A stretch of 64,000 bases of DNA from contig JASMDC010000002.1 of the NCBI GenBank assembly GCA_030753015.1, forward strand, positions 32,001 to 96,000. Direction: 5' to 3'. Below the pieces are notes generated by a model that was given only the letters and a program-made list of their open reading frames with translations, was not told the origin of the DNA and did not search any database. Each line of letters starts with the position of its first letter. Position 1 is the first letter of the stretch. This document shows positions 1-58,937 of this stretch, in pieces. A program made the translations under genes and the position numbers. This DNA is from Candidatus Undinarchaeales archaeon. GTDB lineage: Archaea > SpSt-1190 > JASMDC01.

Positions 1-1
1 C

Positions 2-9000: not shown

Positions 9001-9628
9001 CGGCTGTGGTCTGGCTTGCAGCAACGATGTTCTCACGCGTCTTCTCAAGGTATACCTTGATCGCCATGTCATCGTCGGCTGCAGCACCCCAGTTCCATGA
9101 GGTCCCCAAACCCCTGGTGACCATGTTACCACCACTGTAGGGATCCGTCTCGTCCTGGTAACAGATCATATACTCGGTGCTGATATCGCCCCGGGAGCTG
9201 CGGTAGATGACGATGGCGTACTTAACGTCCTCGCTGACCTCGGCCAGGTCGGAGGAGAAATCGACCTCGACCCATGCCTCAGATCCGGAACATGTATAGT
9301 CGAGGGTGATGGCCGGGAAGTCCGAGTATGTCACGGTCGCCGTGGAAAGGATAGTCTCCGTTGGATAATTGGTCTCCGCGTCCACGCTCCGTATCTGTAC
9401 CGTGAGGTCCTGCCATGAGCCAAGTCCGCTGTTCCTTGCCCCCTTCAAGTAGATCTTGGTGACGTTACCCGTGATGGTCGGTGTGAATAGCATAGATCGA
9501 TCGTTCCTCTTGTCCACACCAATGGCGGCATCGGCCGATGTCTGCTGGACGTCGAGCTGTTCGGCGCTAACAAGGCAGAACACGAGCCCAAGGACGAGGA
9601 GAGCGCTGAGGACTAGTCGGTCCGTCAT
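2..9628 (-). CDS. Giant secreted/cell-surface repeat protein, 3' end truncated by the window edge (>=3209 codons)
   Basis: ATG at 9628 with a GGGAGG SD. Signal peptide MTDRLVLSALLVLGLVFCLVSA. Hand translation of 9628-7350 is open, and the same frame at the left edge still reads ...GTADNVEVFSDSSCTSE. The ORF track omits it, consistent with no stop inside the window. Three N-terminal beta-rich domains are followed by about 14 Ser/Thr/Asp/Tyr-rich repeats of ~175 aa. Confidence 0.9.
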   Translation of the reverse strand, partial: MTDRLVLSALLVLGLVFCLVSAEQLDVQQTSADAAIGVDKRNDRSMLFTPTITGNVTKIYLKGARNSGLGSWQDLTVQIRSVDAETNYPTETILSTATVTYSDFPAITLDYTCSGSEAWVEVDFSSDLAEVSEDVKYAIVIYRSSRGDISTEYMICYQDETDPYSGGNMVTRGLGTSWNWGAAADDDMAIKVYLEKTRENIVAASQTTADTTVAVHGDNWFSQIFRMDETADLSRMSFHVKKTGTPVGNLAFEIQSVTAGKPSGTFIAAGLPVLPGDVDTSSAWEVSRLDVTEKDPLATSTTPPAGAGGIDIYTNSKYAQAFKPGRTGNLTKVRLTVTHYDTHCESPLNVSIWNADSNGMPTGTALTSKSLDDANIGDYSASAFTEVDFEFDTPTVVRAGHLYAIVLEADSCDSSHEYRWHSACGFSDTTCYTRGDKSRDTGSGWGQDSFTDKQNPHFIVYIGNNLTQLSTGVDYALMAYSPVSADADNSYLISKADSNAYSDGTYVGSTDGGSAWTADSAKDMTFRIYRQFLLVPQDDTIQGELPTTLEGSTSSNDAVCIFSSAADTPCNSTATSKCHSDAIGYVTEPAENGSGNDYSVTIDESSNGIYHIYYCDGGTEALHIIETHTSKEANTVTVNVAAVKGEAHSELETAGVVDVFDDLAATAQVDTATQSITSSGGDDYTAYFRSNATDGKYYLRTTSTVSTKVYVGYVFFSSGNGTTTTVDLDILTYGQVPTAITTSGSVWMDDEADETDDTLYRGAITNTGSGYKYRFYHDGTTPMYLKADTDATHTSPVLEEQKTVSSDTEWNVAVLTGNVPTSLVGDTIEVHTGTGDACGASVVNSATVVSGGSYGTYSVYLLPDASARYLYACESSTKVYYGSATIDDAGESVSFSIQGIHGDIHNDLATTSNYIAACSDLGGSALNTVNTNAQTYDGGSTYVYFQSTGTPDLVITSSSGSCAQANVVAAILDVTLDTSDYVNELQPNVKYTGDLTGTFGAGTVLVTATTNSGTGCSMTPWIAKGTVDTNVNEDTDDYRVYVQSGTSVYISFCKSSGPNAKLLMTTKSPSAGGDVNLEVGEVSGDLHADLDSASLYMLVCDDVGGNLISSFTRTAADYDDTLAQYFETTATSTPDFLISTSSSSCAATNIRSVKRNAAVEGDLTHTFTVATKVYGDVPSALASGKLLAFTSTGKGCTDTTDLAARNTTVSSVTVDNDVSVHLTASSTYYLVWCTSGDAKVLEYQITPSSDTSVDAASFGGDAHADLATGSYHGVACTDIGGTALSSEDVTGTQYDSSTKVYYADTGGTPDLIISTSAGSCAAANLVAASLDVSAPASFVSTFNPDTKVYGEVPAALASKTVKVYASNLDCSSAATVARGTLPADPVGGSNDAAVYMQSGGTTYYVNYCDGTTTLLERTEQHGSSGAYTLHVGRITGNLHDSLTSGDYIVVCSDIDGSALNSESVTVGTYDISGAQYYEATGTPDFFISSGSATDCTEANMVTSVHDVTIDTSDYLNGFHPDIKVSGDVPSTLGSGYIKAFTGEPYACGSSGYWGKGAIAASVAGSGDYDLFLESGRSYYFTVCTSSNSYSLRRQKDLSSVADVDFDVGIFSATLHSDIANSTYHITMCDNVAGSALSSKDVDGGAINTSPVYYDATPTIAGTPDLVVGRSAASCAATNVVAAAIDNNIDTSDYANSVTIQAKFSGEVPASMGGKTIQVFNSTQNCGATNDLVTYNTLHSNPTGISNDMMVYLQNGTGNNYHVAFCDSTTKLYNRAADDPSGNSTFSIAEFTGTAHAELANASYHVVACNGIGGSALSTRDVTGTQYNAGTRVYFESIATPEVIISTSALSCAATNLKAAKLDVTVPATLSASFSPGMKLYGEVPGSLASKTIKVFTSDLGCSGTALVAQHTLHASPLGITNDTVLYVEQGGTTYHVAFCDGSTNLLRRTRSEGSAGYSALHVAKVTGSLHADLAGAAYKVVACSDVGGSLLSSESVSTSTFNGGGALYFESTSGTPDVVITSSTDCTASVLVAASLDTTPSSSDYAVTFSPTAKMHGEVPASLAEKTVRVFTSDAGCLSDATKARQTLPSSVTGSDDLAVYVVQGPTYYMTLCDGSTKRLVRTKAVSSTDVTFSVGGVNTSATGKVHTDLEDSSHYIVACDAISGNLLSSESVTGAAFDSGYQYYEVSADDSSVVLAVSSSASSCATTGLSAARTESDMDRGEEVTFDPEAKGSGDIPNDNPTVRVFLTDPGTGACDASGQLYASSDTSTDSSQTNADYSIYGQNGITYYVVFCDGTSRALETSTSSIGTADIDVGRLQGEVHADLRSGDDAISVHSANDCASMVSSETINPTAGTPDYRIWFEDTTGGTYYVRTVVDSTYTQCGHAFTLTSQAKVQNTEGKVSGTVPSGVLRAGLDYDSNGDDAWTTSFSSSAYRLYGDSADTSVLVHAYEDTGGSTEVLERTRNINSGDKTFDVAKVTAGEALHDDLDDADDHLVVCTLPGGSVLASEDITGTSYEGGNTLYFDATSQTTVYFGSSSASLDCTGSTLLTATKQTSVSAGGHYRYIPKYKLTGDVPTGVDRALLFSAIGKGCSDVDGDMAGYDGTLVEGQSDNDYDLYVNKTDGSTFRLVFCNGGTRRLQSVAQSSISAAVDVDVARVASGGASKVHDDLNSQFIVACTAPDGVVLTSESVTGTSYEGGSTYQYFEVTQSTAYFVVSGSASSCSATGLSAGIKLSVAGGSDYTFAPEAKGAGDIPEGNPSVRMFVDDPGTGACGGSQIYVSSDSTTDSSQINADYAVYGQNGATYYVVFCNGTTKALETSTTSIGTADIDVGRLHGEVHADLRTGSNDVIEVHNTIGCASAVSSETVNPTSAAPDYYIWFEDTGSPFYVRTSVDSGQYVQCGHAFTLTAQASTQDLETLAAGTMPSGVLRVGLDYDSNGDDTWTTTFQSSAFKLFGDNADSAVLVHAYEDTGGSTEVLERTRDLTAGDRTFDVARITTPQNIHDDLDDTSDYVVACSAPGGSALVSESINGATFEGGSGNGDVLYVDVTGISDMYLAITSSSLSCTGTNIITATKQSSLSGGSGYAYTPLYKVTGDVPSGPTYAKLFAAASKGCTDVDADLRGYDGSMTTAQTANDYDLYVNKTDSSTFYAVFCDGSNNRLFEASGRTVSGATTIHLGKVAGETHTDLEDSGTADNVEVFSDSSCTSE
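60..7000 (-). repeat. Degenerate tandem coding repeat, ~530 bp (~175 aa) unit, about 14 copies
   Basis: A GxxHxDL-like motif recurs near 6920, 6368, 5840, 5310, 4785, 4245, 3720, 3188, 2660, 2170, 1630, 1110, 615 and 70, each with similarly spaced Cys residues. Confidence 0.85.
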
Positions 9629-19329: not shown

Positions 19330-20397
19330 GTGATCCTTAACGAGGGGCATTCCGTTGGGCTCGAGAAGGAGTTCTACGTCGTCGGCGCCGACAACAACAC
19401 TTACGAACAGGCCATCGTGAAGGACAGCGTAATCCCCCGCATGAAGGCGGAGCTGGGAGCCTACGACGAGTCCTGGGGTCCAAAGTGCTACATCGACGTC
19501 ACGGGTCCCCTTGAGGTCGTCACACGGCCTTGCTCGGACCTGCGCCAGCTCTCCGATGATATTACCACGGCCTACCGCATCGCGCAGGAGGAATCCGACG
19601 ACCGAGGCCTCTACACACTGGGTATGGGCTCACGTCCAGGCAAGCCCAGCGACCAGGCAGGGCTCCACGTGCACGTGGGCTTCAAGGACGAGGCCGAGGC
19701 CGAGTACGTGTTCAACGAGCTACAGAAGCACGTACCGGACATCATGGCCCTTTCGGCCAACTCACCGTCGCGGTTCGGAGGGGTTAAGGACACGCGAGCG
19801 AGTGGCGGGTACTACGGTCACAAGTTCTCTCCGTACTCTGACACGGGCCGCACCTCGGTCATCTACAAGCGTAGCAACACCCTGGAGGTGCGGTGCATGG
19901 ACTCCCAGGGGACGCCGGAGGAGGACGTGGCCATCGCCGCGTACATATTCGGTATCGCCGAGAAGGCCAAGGAGGACCACGCTAACGGTGTCGAACAGGA
20001 TACTGTCGGGAATGAGGGGCCCAAGAACTTCAAGCACGCTGTCAAGAAGGGCATGGAGGCCACCTTCAAGATCGATGACGAGAAGGTCCCGGCGTACCGC
20101 GTGGTCGAGGACACCTTCGTCGACATCCGCCACTACCTGGAGCGGTACGACTGCCCCGATGAGGTCATGGACGTCCTTGAGGGGAAGGTCAAGGAACGTC
20201 GCTCGGGGGCTGACGACATCCTGGACATCTACCACGAGACCGGCTATAGCAGCATATGGACCGGGATTAAGGACTTCTTCACGCTTCACCGGGGCCACGA
20301 CGAACTCTACGATCGGCTCGCACATAGAGGGCGTAGCGATGACGAGACCACCGTCGATGTCCCAGATGCAGACCTGCTACTCGCAAGAGCCGCATAA
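19330..20397 (+). CDS. Carboxylate-amine ligase, glutamate--cysteine ligase family 2 (GCS2/YbdK fold), paralog 1
   Basis: GLEKEF, LEVVTRPC, GLHVHVG, ALSANSP, LEVRCMD and RSGAD motifs. Confidence 0.88.
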   Translation: MILNEGHSVGLEKEFYVVGADNNTYEQAIVKDSVIPRMKAELGAYDESWGPKCYIDVTGPLEVVTRPCSDLRQLSDDITTAYRIAQEESDDRGLYTLGMGSRPGKPSDQAGLHVHVGFKDEAEAEYVFNELQKHVPDIMALSANSPSRFGGVKDTRASGGYYGHKFSPYSDTGRTSVIYKRSNTLEVRCMDSQGTPEEDVAIAAYIFGIAEKAKEDHANGVEQDTVGNEGPKNFKHAVKKGMEATFKIDDEKVPAYRVVEDTFVDIRHYLERYDCPDEVMDVLEGKVKERRSGADDILDIYHETGYSSIWTGIKDFFTLHRGHDELYDRLAHRGRSDDETTVDVPDADLLLARAA

Positions 20398-20455
20398 TAC
20401 GGCCCATTGTTGCGTTCTATTGTAGTATGGAATGGACTATTTCGCGACCGTTATA

Positions 20456-20470
20456 AGAAATGTATAAATA
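20456..20470 (+). promoter_or_regulatory. BRE-TATA promoter of GCS2 paralog 2
   Basis: AGAAAT-GTATAAATA upstream of ATG 20504. Confidence 0.65.
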
Positions 20471-20503
20471 CCACATCGTGCGCCGCCCCCGCACAGTAAC
20501 GAC

Positions 20504-21625
20504 ATGACAATCGTCAACGAAGGTCATTCGGTTGGGCTCGAGAAAGAGTTCTATGTTGTGGACGGGAGCAACCAGACCTACCAACAGTACACTATCGATA
20601 CAATCGTCAAGGAACGGATGCAAAATGAGATGAAAGCATACGATTCCGATGTAGGACCCAAGTGCTATGTCGATGCATCCGGTCCGTTTGAGATCACGAC
20701 CCGTCCGTGTACAGACCTTCAGCAACTTTCCGATGATATCACAACGACCTACAGGTTCGCCAAAGAAGAGTCGGAGAAACAAGGTCTCTATGCTCTCGGA
20801 ATGGGCGGACGGCCCGGAGCTCCAGACGATGCGGCAGGGCTGCACGTGCATGTCGGTTATGCGAATGAGGGCGAAGCCGACTACGTGTTCCACGAGCTCC
20901 AGAAGCACGTACCGGACATCATCGCGCTCTCGGCCAACTCACCGTCACGGGACGGGATGGTCAAATGCCTGCGGCAGTACGGCAATCCGATAAAGCACCT
21001 CTTCGACTTCCTGGGTGCAGGAGATACGCTCTTCTACGGTCATACGTTCTCACCGTTCGAGAAGACGGGCCGTTCCTCTGTCATCTACAAACGGGACGAC
21101 TCGAACACCGTCGAGGTCCGCTGCATGGACACCCAGGGAACCCCCGAGGAGGACACGGCCGTCGCAGCCTACATTTTCGGCATCGCCGAGAAGGCGAAAG
21201 AGGACTTCAATAACGGTGTTGAACAGGTGGGTATCGGTAAAGAGGAGAAACGCAACTTCAAGCGTGCGGTCCGTAAGGGGATGGAGGCGACCTTCAGAGT
21301 GGATGGGAAGAAGGTGCCAGTATCCCAGGTCGTCGCAGCGACACTCAAGGAGATCCAACCTTACCTGGAGCAGTACGATTGTCCTGATGAGGTCATCGAT
21401 GTGCTCAATGAGCGCGTCGCAACCAAACGCTGCGGTGCTGATGACATAATGGACATCTATCGCGAGGAGGGGGTCGGCGGCTTCTGGGGCAGTCTCACAA
21501 GACCGTTCCTTCTCTCGTCCAAGCGGGAAAGGCTCATCAAGCATCTCGGCTACCGCGACCGGTTCGAGGAAGAGCAGGAAAGACAAGATGATGATCCCTC
21601 TTCCATGGTAGCTTCTCCGACGTAA
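20504..21625 (+). CDS. GCS2-family carboxylate-amine ligase, paralog 2
   Basis: Same motif set: GLEKEF, GLHVHVG, ALSANSP, VEVRCMD. Confidence 0.88.
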   Translation: MTIVNEGHSVGLEKEFYVVDGSNQTYQQYTIDTIVKERMQNEMKAYDSDVGPKCYVDASGPFEITTRPCTDLQQLSDDITTTYRFAKEESEKQGLYALGMGGRPGAPDDAAGLHVHVGYANEGEADYVFHELQKHVPDIIALSANSPSRDGMVKCLRQYGNPIKHLFDFLGAGDTLFYGHTFSPFEKTGRSSVIYKRDDSNTVEVRCMDTQGTPEEDTAVAAYIFGIAEKAKEDFNNGVEQVGIGKEEKRNFKRAVRKGMEATFRVDGKKVPVSQVVAATLKEIQPYLEQYDCPDEVIDVLNERVATKRCGADDIMDIYREEGVGGFWGSLTRPFLLSSKRERLIKHLGYRDRFEEEQERQDDDPSSMVASPT

Positions 21626-21654
21626 AGGACGTCCGCTGCCCTTTTTTCGTAATG

Positions 21655-21688
21655 TTTATATAGGACCGGGCCCGCAACCACTTGCGGG
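21655..21688 (+). promoter_or_regulatory. TATA box plus CCCGCAA-N4-TTGCGGG palindrome, GCS2 paralog 3
   Basis: TTTATATA at 21655-62; inverted repeat at 21671-88. Confidence 0.55.
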
Positions 21689-21711
21689 TAACAACAGGGG
21701 AAACGGGTACT

Positions 21712-22833
21712 ATGGAGGATTTCCTAGAAACAGGCCATAGTGTAGGTCTTGAAAAGGAGTTCTACGTCGTCGACGGGAACAACGGGATGACCAACGACAC
21801 CTACAATCTGGTGCACGACATCGGCGATCGTATGGAAAAAGAACTGGGGGCCTATGACAGCAACTGGGGCCCGAAGTGCTATGAGGACCTCTCCGGCCCT
21901 CTGGAGGTCACCACCCGCCCCTGCAAGGATTTGCGCCAGCTGACCAAGGACATCACGACGTCATATAAGATCGCCCAGGAGGAAGCAGAGAATAACGGCC
22001 TCTACGCTCTGGGGATGGGAAATCGACCAGGCAAGAACGACGACCATGCGGGACTTCACGTTCATGTGGGATTCAAGGACGAGGGGGAGGCGGAGTACGT
22101 GTTCCACGCTCTTCAGAAGCATGTCCCCGACATCATGGCGCTGTCCGCGAACTCGCCCACCAACTATGGCGCTTTCAAGGACATACGCCAGGTCGGTGGC
22201 CTCTTCACACAGCTGGTAGAGAACGTGCTCGCGGTGCCCACCCTCTGGGGGCACAATTTCAGCAAGTACGGCCATACGAGCCGCCGCTCTGTCATCTACA
22301 TGCGGGAAAACACCGTAGAAGTGCGGTGCATGGACTCGCAGGGATCGGGGGAAGAGGACGCGGCCATCGGCGCTTACATATTCGGTATCGCCGAGAAAGC
22401 CAAGGATGACTACGCCAACGGTGTCCCTATGGCGGAGGTCGGACGCTGGGAAGAGAAGAACTTCACACGCTCTCTTGTCAAGGGCATGGAAGCGACCTTC
22501 AAGGTAGACGGCGAGAAGGTCAAGGCCTATCAGGTCGTGGACGACACTTTCGAGGAGATCATGCCGTTTCTCAAGCAGTACAAGTGCCCCAAGAAGGTCC
22601 TCGACGTGCTCGAATCCAAGATAGAAGGCCGGCGCTCTGGCGCGGACGACATCCTCGATATCTACAGGGAGGAGCTCCCTCAGGGCTTCCTGGCGCGGCT
22701 CATCGCTCCATTCAGGCGAAAGGAAGGCCAGAAGGAACAGCTCATCAAACACCTTGCATACCGCGACGAGTTTAAGGAAGAGGTTGAGCTCGAGGATGCT
22801 TTGCCGTGGCAGCCTATGCTCGCAGCAGCATGA
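21712..22833 (+). CDS. GCS2-family carboxylate-amine ligase, paralog 3
   Basis: Same motif set; start MEDFLETGHSVG chosen by alignment with the paralogs. Confidence 0.88.
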   Translation: MEDFLETGHSVGLEKEFYVVDGNNGMTNDTYNLVHDIGDRMEKELGAYDSNWGPKCYEDLSGPLEVTTRPCKDLRQLTKDITTSYKIAQEEAENNGLYALGMGNRPGKNDDHAGLHVHVGFKDEGEAEYVFHALQKHVPDIMALSANSPTNYGAFKDIRQVGGLFTQLVENVLAVPTLWGHNFSKYGHTSRRSVIYMRENTVEVRCMDSQGSGEEDAAIGAYIFGIAEKAKDDYANGVPMAEVGRWEEKNFTRSLVKGMEATFKVDGEKVKAYQVVDDTFEEIMPFLKQYKCPKKVLDVLESKIEGRRSGADDILDIYREELPQGFLARLIAPFRRKEGQKEQLIKHLAYRDEFKEEVELEDALPWQPMLAAA

Positions 22834-22892
22834 TCGGACCTCTCGAACGGTCGTTCCGAATCCTTCCGTCAACTGTTGGCTGAAACCGCACA

Positions 22893-22914
22893 CCGCAAAC
22901 GCAACGTTTATATA
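22893..22914 (+). promoter_or_regulatory. Promoter of the GCS2 paralog 4-5-6 operon
   Basis: CCGCAAACGCAACG-TTTATATA upstream of ATG 22948. Confidence 0.6.
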
Positions 22915-22947
22915 GAGGCCAGAGCAGCACCACTCACCAGTAGCAAC

Positions 22948-24012
22948 ATGGAGATCGTGAACGAGGGTCACTCGGTAGGGCTCGAGAAGGAGTTCTACAT
23001 TGTGAACCACGGAAGCAACGGTAATCTTCACCTTGGGGCAGAGATGGGTATCGCATCCGGTATCGGGAACAGAATGCGTGAGGAGTTGGGTGCCTACGAT
23101 GACGAGGTAGGTCCCAAAGCTTACCTCGATGCATCCGGTCCCATGGAGGTCGTTACCCGTCCCTGCTCGGACCTTCACCAGCTCACAAATGATATCACGA
23201 CCGCCTACGACATCGCCCAGGAAGTAGTGGAAGCGCATGGTAAGTACGCCCTGGGGATGGGGACGCGACCTGGGGCGCCGGACGATAAGGCCGGGCTCCA
23301 CGTTCATGTGGGCTACGGCGACGAGGCAGAGGCGGAATACGTCTTCACCGTGCTCAAGCATCACGTGCCCGAGATCATGGCACTATCAGCGAACTCGCCC
23401 AACAAGGACGGCACTATCAAGGATATGCGTGCCGCCAACCGTTCGTACGGCCAACGCTATTCCCCCTTCAGTACGACCAGCAACGAATCCGTCATCAAGA
23501 AGCGTGACAATACCCTGGAGGTGCGGTGCATGGACACCCAGGGGACAGCAGAAGAGGACGCAGCGATCGCTGCATACATCCTAGGCATCGCCGAGAAGGC
23601 CAAGATCGATTACGCCAACGGAGAGGGCGTCTCGGACCGGTTCGGCGACGAAATCAAGAACCATGAGCAGGCGATAAAGGACGGTATGGCCGCGACGTTT
23701 ACGTACGGTGACGAGACGCGGTCGGTACAGGAAGTGGCCCAGGACACATTCGTCGCTATCCTTCCCTACCTTCGTCAATACGATTGTCCTGACGAAGTGG
23801 TGGGCATATTGGCTGACAAGATCGTCCGCGGACGCTCGGGTGCCGATGATATCCTAGACATCTACGCCGAGCACCGATCCCACGGCTTCATGCAAACACT
23901 TGCATCTCCTTTCACGTTCTGGAGCAGGAGGAAAGCGCTCTACAACGACCTTGCTCATCAGCGTGAGTGGAAGGCGCAGGAACGCGAGCGGGCGGACAGC
24001 GGAGGTGCCTGA
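22948..24012 (+). CDS. GCS2-family carboxylate-amine ligase, paralog 4
   Basis: Same motif set; start MEIVNEGHSVG. Confidence 0.88.
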   Translation: MEIVNEGHSVGLEKEFYIVNHGSNGNLHLGAEMGIASGIGNRMREELGAYDDEVGPKAYLDASGPMEVVTRPCSDLHQLTNDITTAYDIAQEVVEAHGKYALGMGTRPGAPDDKAGLHVHVGYGDEAEAEYVFTVLKHHVPEIMALSANSPNKDGTIKDMRAANRSYGQRYSPFSTTSNESVIKKRDNTLEVRCMDTQGTAEEDAAIAAYILGIAEKAKIDYANGEGVSDRFGDEIKNHEQAIKDGMAATFTYGDETRSVQEVAQDTFVAILPYLRQYDCPDEVVGILADKIVRGRSGADDILDIYAEHRSHGFMQTLASPFTFWSRRKALYNDLAHQREWKAQERERADSGGA

Positions 24013-24015
24013 GAG

Positions 24016-25065
24016 ATGATCTCCGAAATCCTCAACGACGGCCATTCGGTGGGGCTGGAGAAGGAGTTCTACGTGGTGAACGGCCATGGTAGCAATCGCA
24101 GAGGCTACGAGATCGTCCCGGCCGTCGAGGAGCGCATGCGCGAGGAAATGGGCGTCTACGACTCGGTCGTCGGCCCGAAAGCATATAACGATCCCACCGG
24201 TCCTGTTGAAGTTACCACTCGTCCCTGCACGGACCTGCAACAGCTCACCGACGATGTCACGACCGCCTACCGCATCGCGCAGGAGGAGGCTGACGCACGT
24301 GGCTGGTACGCCCTCGGGATGGGCACCCGTCCTGGAAAGCCCTACGACATGGCAGGACTGCACGTCCACATCGGTTTCGCCGACAAGGAGGAGGCCCGCT
24401 ACGTGTTCCACGCACTCCAGGCGCACGTTCCGGACATCATGGCACTGTCGACCAATTCTCCATCGAATGATGGCAAGGTCAAGGACATACGCATGGACGC
24501 ACGCGGCCTAGATGGCCTCTTCATGATCAGGTTCGGTCACCAGTTCGATCCGTTCGAAGACACATCACGCGACTCGGTCATCTACGTACGCGAGAACACC
24601 CTGGAGCTGAGATGCATGGATAGCCAGGGGAGCGCCGTGGAGGACGCAGCCATCGCCGCCTACATCCTCGGTATCGCCGAGAAGGCCAAGGAGGACTATA
24701 CCAACAATGCCTCCATACCGGACGTGCCAGCAGAAGGGCCCGAGAACTTCCAGAAGGCCATCGAGGACGGGATGACCGCGACGTTCACCCACGGGGGCAC
24801 GGAGATCCCTGCGCACCAGGTCGTGGCCGATACGCTCGCTGAGGTCAGACCATACCTGGAGCAATATAATTGCCCTGAGAGCGTCATAGCCTCTCTGGAG
24901 GACAAGGTCGAGAACAAGCGGTCCGGAGCCGACGATATCCTCGACATCTACCAGGAGACGGCACCCAAAGGATTCAAGGAGCGTGTTGGCGCGTTCTTCC
25001 ACCCGTGGCGCACGAAGGAGCGGCTCATCGACCGGCTCTCCCATCGGGACGGCGGGGGGTGCTGA
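24016..25065 (+). CDS. GCS2-family carboxylate-amine ligase, paralog 5
   Basis: GLEKEF, GLHVHIG, ALSTNSP and LELRCMD; 3 nt after the paralog 4 stop. Confidence 0.88.
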   Translation: MISEILNDGHSVGLEKEFYVVNGHGSNRRGYEIVPAVEERMREEMGVYDSVVGPKAYNDPTGPVEVTTRPCTDLQQLTDDVTTAYRIAQEEADARGWYALGMGTRPGKPYDMAGLHVHIGFADKEEARYVFHALQAHVPDIMALSTNSPSNDGKVKDIRMDARGLDGLFMIRFGHQFDPFEDTSRDSVIYVRENTLELRCMDSQGSAVEDAAIAAYILGIAEKAKEDYTNNASIPDVPAEGPENFQKAIEDGMTATFTHGGTEIPAHQVVADTLAEVRPYLEQYNCPESVIASLEDKVENKRSGADDILDIYQETAPKGFKERVGAFFHPWRTKERLIDRLSHRDGGGC

Positions 25066-25069
25066 GAGA

Positions 25070-26140
25070 ATGGCCGAGATCCTTAACGAAGGCCACTCGG
25101 TGGGGCTGGAAAAGGAGTTCTACGTCGTTGATGGTACGGGGAGCACGTACCGTCAGTCGATCCTCGAGGGCCACATCGTGGACAGGATGCAGGCGGAGAT
25201 GGACGCCTACGACGTCAGTGTCGGCCCCAAGTGCTACGAGGACGGTTCGGGTCCACTGGAGGTCGTTACACGGCCCTGCACGAATCTACAACAGCTCACC
25301 GACGACGTCACCACGGCCTACCGCATCGCCCAAGAGGAGGCCGATACTCTCAACTGCTACGCCCTGGGAATGGGTATCCGTCCCGGCCAGTCTAAAGATA
25401 AAGCAGGCCTTCATGTCCACGTCGGATATGCCGATGAGGGGGAGGCGCGTCATGTCTTCTACACGCTCCAGCGCCATGTACCGGACATCCTGGCGCTCTC
25501 GGCCAACTCCCCGATCCGGAGCGGGAAGGTCAAGGACGTCCGTCTGGTCAAGGGCTCTTACGGCCACGAGATCTCGCCCTACTCTAGCACATCCAACAGT
25601 TCTGTGATCCAGAAGCGATCCGGGACCATCGAGGTGCGGTGCATGGACAGCCAGGGATCGGGCGAGGAGGACGCGGCCATCGCCGCGTACATATTCGGGA
25701 TCGCCGAGAAGGCCAAGGATGAGTACCATGGACTCGACGAGGTACCTCCCGAGGCGGATGTCATGTACGATGTCAGCAGCTCGTACGAGGTATTGCAGAA
25801 AGAGCTGGTGAAGAACAGGGACAGGGCCATCAAGCAGGGCATGACAGCCGTTTTCAAGACTGACGGTGAAGAGGTGCCAGCGTATCAGGTAGCAGCCGAC
25901 ACCCTTGAGGCGATCAAACCTTTCCTTGAACGCTACGACTGTCCCGCGGACGTCCTTGCCATCCTTGAGGACAAGGTGGAGCGCCGTCGATCGGGAGCGG
26001 ACGACGTGCTGGACATCTACCGCGAAGTAGAGCAAGAGAAGGGACTGGACACGTGGTGGCAGGGAGTGAAGCGGTTCTTCCGCAAAGACGACGGCCTGTT
26101 CGGGCCCGACCTGTACGACCGCATCGCTCACCGCGATTAG
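25070..26140 (+). CDS. GCS2-family carboxylate-amine ligase, paralog 6
   Basis: Same motif set; start MAEILNEGHSVG, 4 nt after the paralog 5 stop. Confidence 0.88.
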   Translation: MAEILNEGHSVGLEKEFYVVDGTGSTYRQSILEGHIVDRMQAEMDAYDVSVGPKCYEDGSGPLEVVTRPCTNLQQLTDDVTTAYRIAQEEADTLNCYALGMGIRPGQSKDKAGLHVHVGYADEGEARHVFYTLQRHVPDILALSANSPIRSGKVKDVRLVKGSYGHEISPYSSTSNSSVIQKRSGTIEVRCMDSQGSGEEDAAIAAYIFGIAEKAKDEYHGLDEVPPEADVMYDVSSSYEVLQKELVKNRDRAIKQGMTAVFKTDGEEVPAYQVAADTLEAIKPFLERYDCPADVLAILEDKVERRRSGADDVLDIYREVEQEKGLDTWWQGVKRFFRKDDGLFGPDLYDRIAHRD

Positions 26141-26163
26141 GTACCTTTCACACCCTCGCTTGC

Positions 26164-26186
26164 CCGCAAGGGAACGTTTATTAAGC
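26164..26186 (+). promoter_or_regulatory. Promoter of nitrilase-fold gene 1
   Basis: CCGCAAGGGAACGTTTATTAAGC; near-identical copy at 27020-27042. Confidence 0.65.
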
Positions 26187-26223
26187 ATCCCTAAGATGTC
26201 GTGGATTAGGAGCGTAGTGATCG

Positions 26224-26982
26224 ATGTACGAGCTCGAGCCTGGTGATGAACGGCCAGACCACATCACGGTAGGCCTCATCGATGCCGATGTCCCGTTCAC
26301 CAGCAGCGATACCCGGGATGAGACCGTCATGGACCACTATCAGGATGCCATCGGAGCGGCCTTGGAGGCCGAGCCCGACATCCTTGTTGGTGCTGAGTAC
26401 GTATTCTTCCCCTATCAGCCACTCACCCGCGAGGAGCGGGACGAACGGTTCAACGTGATGCGTCAGCTATCGACGGAGCATCCGGACACCCTTCTCATGC
26501 CCGGTACCTACATCTGGCAGGAGCAGGGACATCTGCACAATACACTACCTGTGTTCCACAGGGGTGAGCTGGTGTTCACCTATGAGAAGCAGAATCCGGC
26601 TAATGCCGAGCGCTGGATGGAGAGCGACCATAACTTGGCATACACTGCCGAGAAGAGCGAGGGAGTTCTCGAGTACCAGGGCCTTTCCGTGGGGATGGAG
26701 ATCTGCTACGACCATACGGCACACACACTGCGGGACAAGGGTGTCAGGGACCTCGATCTTCAGGTGTTGGTAGCCAACGGCAAGGATTTCATCGACACGG
26801 CCACCATGGTAAGAGAAGGAGGGTACCATCTTCGCGTCGATGGCAGCGACAGCTCTTCGTACGATAGCGTCGAAGTGCACAAGTGTGTCGGTCCTTACAA
26901 GTACACGACCGTCGGACCTGAACGTATGAGCGAGCTCCCTCATGACATGAAGCTCAACCTCTACGAGCTGGACATGGCGTGA
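26224..26982 (+). CDS. Carbon-nitrogen hydrolase (nitrilase superfamily), copy 1
   Basis: Glu-Lys-Cys triad: VGAEY, YEKQ, MEICYDH; also LHNT. Confidence 0.82.
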   Translation: MYELEPGDERPDHITVGLIDADVPFTSSDTRDETVMDHYQDAIGAALEAEPDILVGAEYVFFPYQPLTREERDERFNVMRQLSTEHPDTLLMPGTYIWQEQGHLHNTLPVFHRGELVFTYEKQNPANAERWMESDHNLAYTAEKSEGVLEYQGLSVGMEICYDHTAHTLRDKGVRDLDLQVLVANGKDFIDTATMVREGGYHLRVDGSDSSSYDSVEVHKCVGPYKYTTVGPERMSELPHDMKLNLYELDMA

Positions 26983-27019
26983 TATGCGCCAGGTCCCCCC
27001 GATAGCACGGGCTAACGGT

Positions 27020-27042
27020 CCGCAAGGGAAGGTTTATCAAGC
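27020..27042 (+). promoter_or_regulatory. Promoter of nitrilase-fold gene 2
   Basis: CCGCAAGGGAAGGTTTATCAAGC. Confidence 0.65.
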
Positions 27043-27080
27043 GGACGTTGCGGCCCGTTCGTTGGAGGACGTGACGGACA

Positions 27081-27902
27081 GTGTACTCACTTGAAGATAC
27101 GACGAGCAATGATCGACCTGACCACATCACCGTCGGGCTCATCCAGGGCGACGTACCGTTCGACCGCTACAGTCCACGCGACGAGTCCTTCATGGACGCG
27201 TACCAGGACACGATCTCCACGGCCCTGGAGGCCAATCCGGACGTCCTCGTAGGCTCCGAGTACTCCTTCTTCCCCCACGTACCCCTCACTCGCGAGGAGA
27301 AGGACGAGCGACTTGAGCAGATGCGCGAGATCTCAGAGGAACACCCTGACACCCTCCTCCTACCGGGCACCTACCTCTGGCAGGAGGGCGGCAAGCTCCA
27401 CAATACCCTCCCCGTGTTCCACAAGGGCGAGATTGTCTACTCCTACGACAAGCAGAACTCGGCGAACGGGGAGAACTGGGTCGCCGAGCAGCATGGTCTT
27501 GAATATGAGGCGGAGAAGAGCCGCGGTGTGTTCGAGCACCGGGGGCTCTCCATGGGGCTGGAGATCTGCTACGATCACTCGTGCTACGAACTGTCGGGCA
27601 AGGATGTCGAGGACCTGGACCTGCAGTTCCTGGTAGCGAACGGGAAGAACTTCATCGAGAGCGCTGCAGTGGTCAGGTCCGGTGGCTACCACGTCCGCTG
27701 TGATGGCGACGAGGACGGGTACGGTGGCGTTGAGGTGAACCGGCGGGTCGGCAGCGATGAGTTCGACGAGGTGTCCACCGGGCAGGAACGTGACCTTCCC
27801 AACGACATGAAGCTGGACCTGTACGACCTGGACATGCGGCGGCCCGGATCCGGCGAGGATGGCTTCTCCGTGGCTGGTTTTATCTCCCGCATTCTCCACT
27901 GA
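27081..27902 (+). CDS. Carbon-nitrogen hydrolase (nitrilase superfamily), copy 2
   Basis: VGSEY, YDKQ and LEICYDH; clear paralog of copy 1, with an extra C-terminal tail. Confidence 0.82.
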   Translation: MYSLEDTTSNDRPDHITVGLIQGDVPFDRYSPRDESFMDAYQDTISTALEANPDVLVGSEYSFFPHVPLTREEKDERLEQMREISEEHPDTLLLPGTYLWQEGGKLHNTLPVFHKGEIVYSYDKQNSANGENWVAEQHGLEYEAEKSRGVFEHRGLSMGLEICYDHSCYELSGKDVEDLDLQFLVANGKNFIESAAVVRSGGYHVRCDGDEDGYGGVEVNRRVGSDEFDEVSTGQERDLPNDMKLDLYDLDMRRPGSGEDGFSVAGFISRILH

Positions 27903-27949
27903 GCTGCCCGGCCCCAAGCCTTTTATTGTTGCTTTGTCCTACTATTTCG

Positions 27950-28234
27950 ATGGTCACACTGCACCGTATCATAGGCCTGATGCTTCTCCTCGCCCTTGTA
28001 GCGGGGTGCCTCTCATCCGGACCTTCCGGAGGGGCCTCCACAACGAACCTCCCATCATACTACCAGCAGCTTGCGGACCAATGCAAGGGCTCCAGCTGTT
28101 GCCTGTCCTCCGTTGATTCGATGTACAGGATGAACGCGACCCTATCTCCGCCCAACGGGTGTCCCCCGGGCACACAGGGGAACATGCTCAGATGTGAGGA
28201 CTCATATAAATGGTGCGAACCTGCGGCCCCGTAA
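27950..28234 (+). CDS. Small Cys-rich putative lipoprotein
   Basis: Hydrophobic signal ending in LVAG-C, six further Cys (C-x4-CC...C...C...WC), and TTTTATT about 25 nt upstream. Confidence 0.7.
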   Translation: MVTLHRIIGLMLLLALVAGCLSSGPSGGASTTNLPSYYQQLADQCKGSSCCLSSVDSMYRMNATLSPPNGCPPGTQGNMLRCEDSYKWCEPAAP

Positions 28235-28240
28235 GGGGAG

Positions 28241-29503
28241 TTATGTCTTGACCGGCACCGGCTGCCCGCCCGGCAGGTCCTCGGCCTTCCCCGTGTCCTG
28301 TACGTAGCTGTAGAGCGCCCCCTCAAGCTCCTCGACCGTGGCGACCTGTTCGAGCTCTTGGGACAGCTGCTTGGCCCGACGGTTCCAGAACGGCTCGTGC
28401 TGTTCGATGTACTCGCGCACGATACCGGCGATCTCCTGTACCGGGACCTCCTCCATCGGAGCGAAAAGCGACTCCATGGTGCCCGCCTTGATCGCACCGT
28501 CCTCGTCACCGGCGATGCCGTACCTGCCGGCCACGCGCTCGTAGGTGCGTAGGGACGAGTCCATCTTGCCGAAGGGCAGGTCGGAGCCGAAGAGGATGCG
28601 GCCCTCGTACTCCTGGTGCCGCGAAAGGATGATGTCAGTGAGGCCGAGGGTGTACTTGCCGACGTCCTCTGGCTTCTCCACCTCGTTGTCCTCCAGGGAG
28701 AAGGGCATGGTGATGGAGAGGTCGAGGTACACGTTCTCGTGGGATGCCGCGACATCGGCCGCCTGGGTCACTGCAGCGGTGCGTGCCTTCGCCGATACTA
28801 CCCGTGAGCTCCCGCCGCAGCCGGAGTGGCCGATGATGATGGTGGTGTCCGGGGCCTTCTCGGCGAGCTTGCCCATACGGTAGGGCTCGCACATGATCAC
28901 GTCCTCCGGATTGTCCTGGTCGATGAGGTCGGGACGGGCCTGGGAGTGGAGGAGCACGGGCATGCCCAGGGCACCTGCCACACGCGCCACGGTAGCGGAC
29001 TCGTCCGAGTCGGCGGCGAACTTCTGCGCCCGGGGATGGAGCTTGAGCCCCTCGGCGCCCTCCAGACGGCACCGCACGACCTCGTACACAGCAGCGTACG
29101 GTCCTTCCGATCCTGTGGTGCCGTTGGGGTCCACCCGACAGAACGGGTTGAACCGGCCTTCGTACTCGTTGGCTGCCCACAGCACACGGTCGTTTGCATA
29201 GTGGAATGGGATGAGGACACCGTTGGGATCCGGCACGTTCCGGTCGCCCTCGTTGAAGGGGAACACGTTACACTGGCTCTGCGGTCCGTAGCCCGCGTCC
29301 ATAGCCTCAATGATCTCCTCGGGTGTCAGGCTCCGCTGTGCCTTTTTCTCCCCGACATGGTCGTACCCTAGGCTGGCCTGGACCTCGGCCATGTTCTCCC
29401 ATGTGTACGGTGCGGTCAGTGTCTCGATGCCGTCCGGGGCGTCCCACCCCATGTGGACGTGACAGTCGAGGATCTCCCTGTCCGTGTCGCCGTACTCGAT
29501 CAT
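28241..29503 (-). CDS. Metal-dependent amidohydrolase (TIM barrel, amidohydro_2-like)
   Basis: DCHVH, GLKLHP, LLHS, IGHSG and FGSDLPF motifs. Confidence 0.88.
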   Translation of the reverse strand: MIEYGDTDREILDCHVHMGWDAPDGIETLTAPYTWENMAEVQASLGYDHVGEKKAQRSLTPEEIIEAMDAGYGPQSQCNVFPFNEGDRNVPDPNGVLIPFHYANDRVLWAANEYEGRFNPFCRVDPNGTTGSEGPYAAVYEVVRCRLEGAEGLKLHPRAQKFAADSDESATVARVAGALGMPVLLHSQARPDLIDQDNPEDVIMCEPYRMGKLAEKAPDTTIIIGHSGCGGSSRVVSAKARTAAVTQAADVAASHENVYLDLSITMPFSLEDNEVEKPEDVGKYTLGLTDIILSRHQEYEGRILFGSDLPFGKMDSSLRTYERVAGRYGIAGDEDGAIKAGTMESLFAPMEEVPVQEIAGIVREYIEQHEPFWNRRAKQLSQELEQVATVEELEGALYSYVQDTGKAEDLPGGQPVPVKT

Positions 29504-29505
29504 GA

Positions 29506-30792
29506 TTACACCAGATACTCCATATTGGTAGATTTCTCGATGACATAGGATGCCAGGTCCTCGCCGTCGTTCACGGCATCGATCTGGACGTCGGCGCCGG
29601 AGCGGCCACTGTACACGCGCGCTTCCAGACGCTCGCGTACATCGTCCGGAATCTTGAGGTCATCGAGGACCGGCTTGATCTTCTCGTATGTCTCCTTGAT
29701 AGCGTCCTTAGCTGCGACCTCTACATCCTGGCCGTCCTTGGAATAGGTGATCGTGCCGTCCATGCCACCGTAGCCCACCTCGTCGATGTTCTTCTTGAGG
29801 ACATCGTTGTCCATCGCGATATCGTACGCGGGGCGGTGATCGGCCAGCCATGTGTCCGATGCGTCCAGCTGTGAGCTGAGCTGGGCGTACTGCTGGTCGC
29901 CGTCGGTCTCCTTACCGAAGAACTTGCGGATGCCCCGGCCCATGGCCGAGAAGATACCGGCATGGTAGACCTGTTCCAGCTGATCCTGCAGGTCGTTGCG
30001 CTCATGCTCTTTGTTGGCGAGTTCGGTCCAGTCGTAGTTACCGCTGGCCATTTCCTTCTTGGCGAACTCAGCGATGCCCCATATGAACGCGGCCACCGCG
30101 ACGTCCTCCTCGGCAGTGAGCTGGGCGTCGGGGCAGCGCACCTCCACGGTCCCCTTGAGCCGGTCGGAGTCCTTCTCTCCGGCGATGACGACCCCGCGGC
30201 CGTCCCAGCGCTCGCGCTTGAAGCTCAGGACCTCGGAGTGGGCCCGGTCCTCGTCGCCGTACACCACCGGATCGTTCGGGATGGTGCGGCCGTACTGCGT
30301 ACCGCCCATATTGGTGGAGTATATGCGGGCGTCCTTGCACCACTTACCCAGTGTGCCCTTCTTTGGCGAGTTGGAGGCGAGGGCGATGATCTCGGGGAGG
30401 TGGGCCCGCAGGGCCTTGGTGACGAACAGCGCCTCACGGTCGTCGGCAGCGCCGACGTGGGTGTGCATGGCCATGTAGCCGCCCTTGTCCGGATGGCGTG
30501 CTGCGGTCATGATCTTGTAGCCGCGGCCGGTGGCCTCGTCACGTACCTTCGTGACCATCTCTTTCATTTCGGTGTTCAGGTCAGTTAGGTTTTCGTAGGG
30601 GTGCGAGTTGATCTCGATACCCCAAACGCTGAATCCGAGCGCTGACGGGTAGTCGTGGTTGATACGGTCGTCGCTGCACGCGTTCTCGATCGAAGTGCAG
30701 TCAACGGGATTGCCATTGGGATCGACGATGATGAACTCCTTCTCCATGCCGATGGTGTGGCCGTCGTTCAGCTTGCCCCACGACATGATCAT
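29506..30792 (-). CDS. GCS2-family carboxylate-amine ligase, divergent paralog 7 with long helical insert
   Basis: GMEKEF, IEINSHP, MHTHVG, ALASNSP, VEVRCPD and RSGAD motifs. Confidence 0.85.
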   Translation of the reverse strand: MIMSWGKLNDGHTIGMEKEFIIVDPNGNPVDCTSIENACSDDRINHDYPSALGFSVWGIEINSHPYENLTDLNTEMKEMVTKVRDEATGRGYKIMTAARHPDKGGYMAMHTHVGAADDREALFVTKALRAHLPEIIALASNSPKKGTLGKWCKDARIYSTNMGGTQYGRTIPNDPVVYGDEDRAHSEVLSFKRERWDGRGVVIAGEKDSDRLKGTVEVRCPDAQLTAEEDVAVAAFIWGIAEFAKKEMASGNYDWTELANKEHERNDLQDQLEQVYHAGIFSAMGRGIRKFFGKETDGDQQYAQLSSQLDASDTWLADHRPAYDIAMDNDVLKKNIDEVGYGGMDGTITYSKDGQDVEVAAKDAIKETYEKIKPVLDDLKIPDDVRERLEARVYSGRSGADVQIDAVNDGEDLASYVIEKSTNMEYLV

Positions 30793-31781
30793 TCCCCTCC
30801 GTGGAACTCTTTCTCCAGCTCCACCGAATACTCGACGATCTGGCGCACTGCGTCCCTGCCATGGCCGGTGCTGCGCTCGAGATTGTAGAATCCACCAGGG
30901 GCGGAGTTAAGTTCCAGCACGATGTAGTCGACGTTACCGTCCTTATCGTATCGCTCCAGGATGTCCACACCGGAGAAGTGCAGGCCGTCACCCATGGCCT
31001 TCACGGCCTCGACCGCCAGCTCTGCGACCTTCTGGTATTCATTATCAGGGACCTTCTCTCCATGGCCACCGTTGTGGATGTTAGTGATCCAGTCGTTGTT
31101 GACACGATACATGGCGCCGATGCACTCGTCGCCCACCACGTATGCCCGGATGTCCCGAAAGCTCTGGTGCGGCCAGTACTTGAACACGTCCTCCTGGACG
31201 ATGTCCGTGCCCAGATTCACCTGCTTGAGCGCCTCTTCGGCGGTGTCCACCTTGCGGATGCCCTTGCCGCCGAAACCATTGGAGGGCTTGAGCACGTAGG
31301 GGCCCTCGACACGTTCGCAGAACTCACGGATATCATCGTAAGAATGAGGGATGACCGTCTCGGCCACGGGCACATCGGCCTGCTCCAGCAGCTGCTGGGT
31401 GCGCACCTTGCTCCCAGTGACCGGGTACATGTCCGGATCGTTGAGAACAAGAGTGCCGTTGGCCTCGAACTCGCGCAGGATGCCCGAGGGGGGCCCGGCC
31501 ATGAAGTTGATAATGACGTCGGGATCGCCGCCCAGCTCCTTGCGGATCTTCTGCTTGACGTGGCCGCCGCCGCTGTAGTGCTTGGGGAACTTCGCGTGCG
31601 CGCCGCGTACGCCGTCCATGGAGTTGACCGCTTCATCGAAGTACCGTCCCAAGGAGGAGTTCATGGAGTTGTCGATATTGTCATGATAGAGCACCTTGAT
31701 GGACTCGTCATCGAGTTCGAACCCGGTGAGCTTGTCCAACAGGTCGCGCCAACCGCTTATCGTGGCCACTTCCTGTGACAT
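30789..31781 (-). CDS. RimK/LysX-family ATP-grasp peptide ligase
   Basis: VLKPSNGFGGKGI, IVQE, DIRAYVVG, WITNIHNGG, GVDIL and ELNSAP. ATGA overlap with GCS2 paralog 7. Start uncertain (31781 or 31850). Confidence 0.88.
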   Translation of the reverse strand: MSQEVATISGWRDLLDKLTGFELDDESIKVLYHDNIDNSMNSSLGRYFDEAVNSMDGVRGAHAKFPKHYSGGGHVKQKIRKELGGDPDVIINFMAGPPSGILREFEANGTLVLNDPDMYPVTGSKVRTQQLLEQADVPVAETVIPHSYDDIREFCERVEGPYVLKPSNGFGGKGIRKVDTAEEALKQVNLGTDIVQEDVFKYWPHQSFRDIRAYVVGDECIGAMYRVNNDWITNIHNGGHGEKVPDNEYQKVAELAVEAVKAMGDGLHFSGVDILERYDKDGNVDYIVLELNSAPGGFYNLERSTGHGRDAVRQIVEYSVELEKEFHGGE

Positions 31782-32692: not shown

Positions 32693-33465
32693 TCGCGCTC
32701 AAGCTGTTCTATAACGGAGAGGGATTTCATGGTTCACAGGTGCAACCCGAGGTACGAACCGTCGCGGGCGAGCTTGAGCGAGCGCTCGCATCCCTGGGTG
32801 CGACACAACGGGTACGGCTGGCATCGCGCACGGACCGGGGCGTCTCGGCCCTAGAACAGGTGGCCTGCTTTGAGCCTCCATCAGAAGGATTCCATCCAGG
32901 TGCTCTCAACGACCGCCTCCCCGACGATATCTGGGTATGGTCCTGGGCCGATGTCGATGAGAGCTTCAGGCCACGACACGCAACCGGTAAAGAGTACGTG
33001 TACGTCCATCCGGCACGGCTCGACGCTGACGCTGCACTCAAAGCAGCGACCATGCTCAAGGGGGAGCACGACTTCACCAATCTCAGCCGTCATGATGACC
33101 GCAGCACTCTCCGGACCCTGGATACAGTGGATGTGACGACCGGTGACTGCACGGTGTTCACGTTCCGGGCCTCGTCCTTCCTCCACGAGATGGTGCGTCG
33201 GTGCGTTACTTTGCTGGCCCGTGTTGGGGGTGGTGAGGCGGGCATTGACGCTGTGGCACGGGCGCTCGATCCTGATGCGACGGTGAATATCCCTCCAGCT
33301 GATCCACGCTGGCTCTACCTTTCCCGTATCTGGTACCGGGATGAGCCCGTGTGGCGTGATTTCGGGCCCGGTCGAGAAGCGGTGCGACGTTTCGTCCGTC
33401 GGATGGCGGAGGAGGCACGAGCACGACAGGGATTAGCGGGATTGGTGCTCTCTCGACTGGATTAG
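32689..33465 (+). CDS. truA: tRNA pseudouridine(38-40) synthase
   Basis: YNGEGFHGSQVQP, ASRTDRGVSA, GEHDF and FLHEMVRR motifs. Confidence 0.92.
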   Translation: MIALKLFYNGEGFHGSQVQPEVRTVAGELERALASLGATQRVRLASRTDRGVSALEQVACFEPPSEGFHPGALNDRLPDDIWVWSWADVDESFRPRHATGKEYVYVHPARLDADAALKAATMLKGEHDFTNLSRHDDRSTLRTLDTVDVTTGDCTVFTFRASSFLHEMVRRCVTLLARVGGGEAGIDAVARALDPDATVNIPPADPRWLYLSRIWYRDEPVWRDFGPGREAVRRFVRRMAEEARARQGLAGLVLSRLD

Positions 33466-34181
33466 GGCTCCTGGCGTGGTGGCGAGAGCACTCCCTGGGC
33501 GAGGTCGGAGATGTTCCCGACCGTGCGTACACGGATCCCTGGGCATGCTTCAGCAACGGGAAGGTCGCGCTGGACGAGGCGGACCTGGCCGGTCACAGGA
33601 TCCTGGCGTTCTTCCCATGTGACGACCTGGGCGTTCTCCTCGGCAACCCACAGCTCGCGCAGTCCTGCATCCAGGACCGCAGCGCACTTCGACGGGAGCT
33701 GAGCAACGCCCATGAGCGATCCGTCAGGGCGCACACCCGCGCTCACCGTGGTCCCCTCCCGCGGAACAGTACCATTGATAGCACAGGTCATGAGCAGGGC
33801 GAGGGCTGCACCGCCAGACCGCCCCACGAGCGAGGCGTTGTGGTCCGTTTCGACCGTCACACCCCTCTCTTCGAGTGAAGCGGACAGTAAAGTGCTCGCC
33901 ACGATCCGTGCCGAGTTGAACGCCTCTAGGAACGCCTCGTCGCCCGTGACGTCCACACTGTCCGTGTCGGAATCCGTCCGAACGCTGACCGTGAGCGAGA
34001 TCATCATCCCCTCTACTGGTGTGTTCTCCTTGAGGATGACGCCCGGGATCCCCAGAGTGCAGGAGCGGGAAGTTATCGGAGCTCCTGAGGACGGACCGGG
34101 CGAGCTACTGAGACACCCGACGACGAGCAAGCAAAGAGAGAGGACGACTGAGGTACTATGTCCGCACGCGGGGAGGATCAT
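33462..34181 (-). CDS. Putative lipoprotein with stand-alone Lon (S16) protease domain
   Basis: LVVG-C lipobox; VGRSGGAAL contains the candidate catalytic Ser and QLPSKCAAV the candidate Lys; no AAA domain. Confidence 0.7.
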   Translation of the reverse strand: MILPACGHSTSVVLSLCLLVVGCLSSSPGPSSGAPITSRSCTLGIPGVILKENTPVEGMMISLTVSVRTDSDTDSVDVTGDEAFLEAFNSARIVASTLLSASLEERGVTVETDHNASLVGRSGGAALALLMTCAINGTVPREGTTVSAGVRPDGSLMGVAQLPSKCAAVLDAGLRELWVAEENAQVVTWEERQDPVTGQVRLVQRDLPVAEACPGIRVRTVGNISDLAQGVLSPPRQEP

Positions 34182-58894: not shown

Positions 58895-58937
58895 AAGAGG
58901 ACTATAACGTCTGTGTGCTATTTATGTCTTAGTATGG

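Follow-up and report, generated by a model that had tools for sequence, protein, structure and literature searches.

Aromatic amphipathic helices at four sites in an island of amide-forming and amide-cutting enzymes of a Candidatus Undinarchaeales archaeon: possible peripheral membrane anchors

Organization of the locus

A stretch of 64,000 nucleotides from a Candidatus Undinarchaeales archaeon (contig JASMDC010000002.1, positions 32,001 to 96,000 of the forward strand; hereafter the window) carries an island of amide-forming and amide-cutting enzymes, and the present work concerns the short, aromatic amphipathic segments that most of them contain. On the plus strand lie six GCS2 ligases in tandem (L1 to L6), two nitrilase-fold enzymes and a small Cys-rich gene, faced on the minus strand by a RimK-type ligase, a seventh GCS2 ligase (L7) and an amidohydrolase; pheT and a gene of unknown family flank the island on one side, a glycosyltransferase gene on the other. 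A helix with one hydrophobic face is present in nine of the eleven island enzymes (Table 1).

Position, composition and frequency of the segments

An earlier note on this DNA had quoted nine such peptides and likened them to the MinD and FtsA membrane-targeting helices, whose consensus is GF-x-x-R/K-L-F. All nine lie in frame where it had placed them: those of L1 to L6 are given in Table 1, and the quoted stretches of L7, nitrilase 2 and RimK span 29917-29958 (minus strand), 27873-27899 (plus strand, extreme C-terminus) and 31719-31754 (minus strand), respectively. The host proteins are acidic as described, with net charges of -19 to -32, and the L7 segment is indeed internal, at the tip of a predicted hairpin. 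Other parts of the description hold only in part. The L1 to L6 segments are internal, near the C-terminus but separated from it by 19-47 residues, with a core helix coming next; the RimK segment, said to begin the protein, lies near its start, at residues 10-21 counted from the ATG at 31781; and the peptides are basic in L2, L3, L5, L6, L7 and nitrilase 2, while those quoted for L1, L4 and RimK are neutral.

The hydrophobic-moment analysis suggested in that note gave moments of 0.50-0.81 for the best 11-residue windows, corresponding to the 93rd-100th percentile of 1,089,123 windows of the genome. Hydrophobic moment alone proves little, because most proteins have some such window (one of at least 0.6 occurs in 935 of 1,095 proteins of 250-450 amino acids); the distinctive trait of the segments is their richness in Phe and Trp, with few acidic residues, within acidic proteins. 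Terminal amphipathic windows were more frequent than in shuffled sequences at both the C-terminus (56 vs. 28-35) and the N-terminus (53 vs. 22-26), but since shuffling destroys all helices, real proteins were used as controls instead, namely 232 acidic, non-membrane proteins of similar length from the same genome. Three of these controls reached the level of L7, none that of L6, 29 that of L2 and L3, and 75 the level common to all seven ligases. When the island was reduced to six independent units (L1-L6, L7, nitrilase 1, nitrilase 2, amidohydrolase and RimK), a medium criterion was passed by four units and by 45 of the 232 controls (P = 0.015), and a loose one by five units and 87 controls (P = 0.031). 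Both criteria were chosen after the segments had been seen, and the enrichment is therefore modest evidence.

Table 1. Features of the island, in window coordinates.
Feature	Position	Strand	Remarks
Ligase 1, GCS2/YbdK fold, 355 aa	19330..20397	+	Pfam GCS2 above cut-off; catalytic E,E,E,H,H,E,R kept
Ligase 1 inserted region; amphipathic helix 20251-20280, neutral	20233..20304	+	
Ligase 2, 373 aa	20504..21625	+	Pfam GCS2; catalytic residues kept
Ligase 2 second amphipathic insertion behind KxxR motif, moment 0.69	20975..21034	+	Unnamed in the earlier note
Ligase 2 inserted region; helix 21479-21508, basic tail	21461..21532	+	
Ligase 3, 373 aa	21712..22833	+	Pfam GCS2; catalytic residues kept
Ligase 3 second hydrophobic insertion behind KxxR, moment 0.63	22189..22245	+	
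Ligase 3 inserted region; helix 22684-22713	22666..22740	+	
Ligase 4, 354 aa	22948..24012	+	Pfam GCS2; catalytic residues kept
Ligase 4 inserted region; helix 23884-23913, weakest, moment 0.50	23866..23937	+	
Ligase 5, 349 aa	24016..25065	+	Pfam GCS2; catalytic residues kept
Ligase 5 inserted region; helix 24970-24999	24952..25023	+	
Ligase 6, 356 aa, YbdK fold	25070..26140	+	Structure model: Z 30.6, rmsd 2.7, 304 aligned with 1r8g
Ligase 6 inserted region; predicted helix 329-337 (26051-26080), moment 0.81	26021..26110	+	
Nitrilase-fold hydrolase 1, E-K-C motifs present, without helix tail	26224..26982	+	
Nitrilase-fold hydrolase 2, E-K-C motifs present	27081..27902	+	
Nitrilase 2 C-terminal add-on: variable polar linker, then amphipathic 10-mer (27870-27899)	27837..27899	+	
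Small Cys-rich protein, lipoprotein-like signal (by eye)	27950..28234	+	
Amidohydrolase_2 enzyme; weak aromatic/basic segment 28358-28390, moment 0.52	28241..29503	-	
Ligase 7, 428 aa, without ligase 1-6 insertion	29506..30792	-	
Ligase 7 predicted helical hairpin (aa 255-319); aromatic/basic segment 29917-29961 at tip	29836..30030	-	
RimK-type ATP-grasp ligase, 330 aa	30789..31781	-	
RimK N-terminal amphipathic helix, moment 0.81, neutral	31719..31757	-	
aa, amino acids; rmsd, root-mean-square deviation.

Four separate sites

As judged from the alignments, the nine segments amount to four events: the insertion of L1 to L6, that of L7, the tail of nitrilase 2 and the head of RimK. The L1 to L6 segments count as one because all are at one homologous site, where 16-22 residues absent from canonical YbdK/GCS2 ligases are inserted between the last two helices. 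From the GA motif to the last helix, 24 of 25 family rows measured 34-40 residues and 96 of 97 distant GCS2 rows 17-18, the sole exception among the latter being a truncated sequence (omitted from the 120 hits were the window copies P0001 and P0010, the L7 orthologue P0021, and P0039, of 471 amino acids). Since P0020, with a span of 26 residues, and L7 are without the insertion helix, the GCS2 fold does not need it. Motif positions 1, 5 and 9 were hydrophobic in all 24 rows, the last always being Phe, and the polar positions drifted, with 35 basic vs. 8 acidic among the 240 residues; these rows are close kin, forming six paralogue groups, and each paralogue retains its own motif variant across genomes. 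The alignment points to selection on shape. In the L6 model, the helix at residues 329-337 (predicted local distance difference test score, pLDDT, 75-86) is the sole one of 12 without an acidic residue, and contains four Phe or Trp vs. at most one in any other helix. A further hydrophobic insertion, variable and adjacent to the active site, is found in L2, L3 and, more weakly, L5 (24493-24531), and is a candidate specificity loop.

The L7 insertion, separate from that of L1 to L6, spans some 65 residues, for which the model shows two long helices (255-283 and 297-319) and the segment at the turn between them; pLDDT is 53 at the tip vs. 82-90 on the stalks. The stretch aligns with two-helix coiled coils at Z about 7, a score that describes the arrangement only, and with respect to the congeneric genome G006 the tip is identical at 14 of 14 positions, the stalks at 19 of 24 and 21 of 27.

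The nitrilase 2 tail, 21 residues long, occurs in one of the five nitrilase-fold paralogues of the genome, being absent from nitrilase 1, the three other paralogues and the relative P0129; compared to G006, identity is 3 of 11 in the linker and 7 of 10 in the helix. Those three further paralogues are encoded at G000 C95:104049-105734 and C52:31577-32290, two of them in tandem. The RimK helix precedes the apparent first strand, in a region where alignment with housekeeping paralogues is poor, and its moment is reached by 3 of 2,784 N-termini, RimK included; a 50% identical relative, P0122, keeps an amphipathic head of different sequence. A Pup-like reading of the terminal GGE of RimK was rejected, as GGE is not kept in G006.

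The earlier note had proposed one localisation signal shared by three unrelated folds. The helices do lie outside the conserved cores of three folds, but a single shared signal was not recovered. A profile of the L1-L6 motif scored the island ligases at 22-27 bits vs. 4.4 for L7, -2.8 for nitrilase 2 and 2.8 for RimK, which lends no support to a common tag, and a proteome-wide scan with it returned 25 non-island matches of at least 11 bits vs. 22-28 in three shuffles. Three of four regular-expression scans were at chance; the remaining pattern, generic and of six residues, was in excess (190 vs. 142, standard deviation 15), which ordinary helix periodicity can explain. A common DNA origin, as an in-frame inserted element, was likewise rejected: among 21 comparisons involving L7, nitrilase 2 or RimK, two gave P of 0.03-0.045, the level of chance, and blastn found one 21-base match elsewhere. 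As judged by these comparisons, the four sites have no common sequence or DNA origin.

Ligase fold, active site and wider family

The models of L6 and L7 superposed on 1tt4 with Z of 31.1 and 32.0, rmsd of 2.7 and 2.8, and 304 and 322 aligned residues, respectively. The catalytic E,E,E,H,H,E,R are kept throughout L1 to L7, together with the GhExE motif named for the superfamily (PMC2588565). The ligases are not YbdK proper, scoring 66-72 bits with TIGR02050 (NCBIfam YbdK) vs. a cut-off of 176.4. Two stretches are shortened: from the third Glu to HxH there are 50-51 residues vs. 74-79 in canonical proteins, about 25 being missing before the HxH strand, and behind SANSP there are 42-59 in L1 to L6 vs. 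about 70, about 10-30 being missing. Both losses, we infer, would open the active site.

A search of 1.84 billion representatives returned one cluster for L1 to L6 and a wider group sharing the first deletion. The ESM Atlas yielded GCS2 clusters only. In a tree of 157 of the 163 proteins, whose deep nodes are weakly supported, this wider short-lid group had 73 leaves and a support of 0.92; it may constitute an undescribed protein-modifying branch. Among its members (P0131-P0279) are proteins of 2,200-3,550 amino acids, others being distinguished by hydrophobic anchors at the N-terminus, by fusion to CDC48-N (P0159) or by zinc ribbons (P0232). Hydrophobic segments are carried by P0134, P0136 and P0146, and the members with hydrophobic segments, CDC48-N or zinc ribbons lie in the sister branch. 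An eighth GCS2-like gene of the genome (L031, G000:C29:10800-12600) has canonical-looking lid segments. The literature, mostly open-access, yielded no description of amphipathic anchors on GCS2 ligases, and the main text of PMC7414124 contains none of the terms glutamate-cysteine, RimK, nitrilase, SecA and amphipathic.

Similar helices in the same genome

Eleven proteins with similar terminal helices, picked by hand and scanned for families, comprised SecA, a SepF-like protein, DnaJ, an E2 enzyme, an arginase-family protein, a nucleotidyltransferase, DUF47, DUF4350-like and SNAP/TPR proteins, and two without a family. The N-terminal helices of the SepF-like protein (23.8 bits, under the Pfam cut-off of 27) and of SecA have moments of 0.81 and 0.73 and a net charge of 0, matching L1 and RimK. 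Both families bind membranes via an N-terminal helix (SepF, 10.1101/2020.10.06.327809; SecA, 10.1101/2021.03.26.437172), and since these helices are neutral too, the neutrality of L1 and RimK does not speak against membrane binding here. Because the look-alikes include many other families, the pattern is compatible with membrane binding and not diagnostic of it. MinD was uninformative as an internal control, the genome having two deviant Walker A proteins, neither with such a tail.

The SecA is full-length (822 amino acids, four SecA Pfam domains; L020, G000:C41:11278-13746, minus strand), and its gene neighbours look like secreted or membrane proteins. G006 holds a 93% orthologue and a 63% second copy (L033), and no full-length match was found in 15 small-genome relatives. 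A 2018 review describes the proteins substituting for SecA in archaea as unidentified (PMC6098224).

Distribution and surroundings of the island

The genome carrying the island measures 3.85 Mb, with 3,233 genes in our own gene call, and SRP54, FtsY, eIF6 and S19e, archaeal in kind, are among the window translations. Within the class, two of 17 genomes were found to carry the locus; both belong to the same genus and measure 3.6-3.8 Mb, and the remaining 15 (0.6-1.2 Mb) gave no match to the ligases. The gene order of the island is identical in G006, at 76-95% identity, and a search for wider loci found G006 only among genome contigs and one 2.5-kb contig among metagenome contigs. The small six-Cys protein, single copy here and without Pfam match, has two tandem domain copies in G006 (L017:8009-8440). 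Sigma-70 scans were at chance, a model unsuited to archaea. Elsewhere in the window are very large open reading frames at 1-9628 (one of 8,347 amino acids, ending at 9628), a run of genes of 1,200-1,700 amino acids at 55280-63971 and, three genes from the island, a lipoprotein-like gene at 33462-34181 (minus strand) whose product, judged by eye, resembles a Lon-type serine protease domain, with no significant Pfam match.

Interpretation

We hold with moderate confidence that the segments are independently gained peripheral membrane anchors on open-site, ATP-dependent amide ligases and a matching amidase. Since aromatic amphipathic helices were apparently gained independently at four sites, the membrane would be the simplest low-specificity surface under selection, and in support the helices keep their hydrophobic face while their sequence drifts. 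They would act as weak peripheral anchors holding the acidic enzymes at the cytoplasmic membrane face, the aromatic face dipping into the lipid surface and basic neighbours binding head groups; dimer formation could supply the valency that single helices of such kind lack, and nitrilase 1 would be at the membrane only via a partner, if at all. Tentatively, the ligases could join amines of membrane-bound acceptors, whether lipid head groups or membrane proteins, to glutamyl or other acyl groups, with RimK extending these groups and the nitrilase-fold and amidohydrolase enzymes removing them. It has been reported that GCS2-sized ligases beside peptidases are assigned to small-peptide metabolism (PMC2588565), which may be a fair alternative for the substrate of the island. 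The complete picture, speculative and rather unlikely as a whole, would be that of a large-genome DPANN archaeon with a membrane-face amide write-and-erase system, where seven open-site GCS2 ligases, RimK as the extender and an amidase of nitrilase fold, their lipid-binding helices gained separately, put glutamyl-type groups on archaeal lipid head groups or membrane proteins and take them off, an undescribed membrane modification.

Several observations weigh against membrane anchoring. The enrichment over controls is modest and post hoc, all evidence comes from one genus, and two island enzymes are without a clear helix, nitrilase 1 having no segment and the amidohydrolase a weak one. The head of P0122 is acidic (net -3), and neither a transmembrane segment nor the insertion is present in the closest ligase relatives from other genera. 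That short-lid ligases in general are membrane-anchored was considered and rejected, as the excess of transmembrane segments among them did not reach significance (7 of 72 vs. 3 of 78 proteins, P = 0.20). The L6 helix is fairly ordered, which also fits docking on the protein body. Among the look-alikes, the same pattern is found on the DnaJ tail, the E2 enzyme, the arginase-family protein and the nucleotidyltransferase, and a membrane-binding helix is known for the families of only two of the 11, the SepF match being below cut-off.

The main rival explanation, somewhat doubtful but deserving weight, is that the helices are protein-binding elements, forming homo- or hetero-oligomers (for instance by paralogue-specific pairing among the seven ligases) or docking on a shared partner or substrate. 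The DnaJ tail that shares the pattern is a protein-binding one, for which no open paper was found, and when the L6 model is aligned with glutamine synthetases, the match runs out at residues 331-339, opposite the extreme C-termini of the synthetases, which we take to be an inter-ring contact. Retention of its own motif variant by each paralogue would also suit specific pairing. Many enzymes of the superfamily work as dimers (PMC2588565), and nitrilase C-terminal tails are known oligomer contacts that stabilise the assemblies, there as beta strands (PMC6637149). Four positions, three folds and a hairpin tip nevertheless fit a low-specificity surface better, and the polar face varies freely among paralogues, with no common motif.

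Packing of the helices on the enzyme that carries them, or their use in place of the lost lids, thereby shaping a pocket for hydrophobic amine or acyl substrates, is unlikely; the likeness among the folds would then be ordinary amphipathicity. The order of the L6 helix, the residues lost before HxH and behind SANSP, the second hydrophobic insertion adjoining the active site in L2, L3 and L5, and the 45 controls passing the same criterion are consistent with such packing; yet P0020 and L7 are without the helix, the L7 tip is poorly ordered and in the model is separated from the body by some 25 helical residues, and the nitrilase 2 helix comes after a variable polar linker. An export tag, also raised in the earlier note, on effectors delivered to a host or prey cell is very improbable: the organism is of DPANN type, its genus has a full-length SecA and the island a lipoprotein-like gene, but the segments are internal in seven of nine proteins, without a common motif at a common end or genome-wide enrichment, none of the 11 enzymes has a hydrophobic signal or transmembrane stretch, and ATP-dependent chemistry needs the cytoplasm.

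As amphipathic membrane anchors are a familiar element, the helices are nothing new in kind; the unusual point is that they were gained repeatedly, at four sites and on three folds, within a single locus whose enzymes form and cut amides. Binding of the helices to membranes, if true, would narrow the substrate of an unexplained ligase array to lipids or membrane proteins.

Comparison with known systems

MinD and FtsA resemble the island in that a short amphipathic helix is appended to a soluble enzyme (PMC6803595; 10.1101/2020.04.03.021790; 10.1101/2020.10.06.327809), and MinD, which carries its helix at the extreme C-terminal end, needs at least two copies of it for binding (PMC6803595). The bulky hydrophobic face is shared across the whole range of island moments, a helix being predicted in the L6 and L7 models. 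The far C-terminal position is found in nitrilase 2 only, whereas L1 to L7 have internal segments and RimK an N-terminal one; the polar face is basic in six of the nine, neutral in L1, L4 and RimK, and acidic in P0122; and the carriers are GCS2, nitrilase and ATP-grasp folds instead of ParA/MinD or actin-fold ATPases. The SepF and SecA helices of this genome agree with L1, L6 and RimK in moment range, neutral charge and aromatic pattern, but they are not homologous and are not ranked among the matches of the ligase-motif profile. With YbdK/GCS2 proteins (1r8g, 1tt4, PF04107) the island ligases share the fold (Z 31-32, rmsd 2.7-2.8) and the catalytic residues, and they differ by the two shorter or missing stretches near the active site, the amphipathic insertions and the presence of seven copies in one locus.

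The nearest parallel within the ligase fold concerns PafA of Plesiocystis and Rhodopirellula, a glutamine-synthetase-fold ligase reported to be anchored via segments inserted in the fold (PMC2588565). PafA there has four transmembrane segments and a linked Pup gene, whereas the island has surface helices, and no Pup-like gene ending in GGE or GGQ was seen among its open reading frames of at least 80 amino acids. If the proposed reading is true, anchoring by surface helices would join the transmembrane anchoring already known for this ligase fold.

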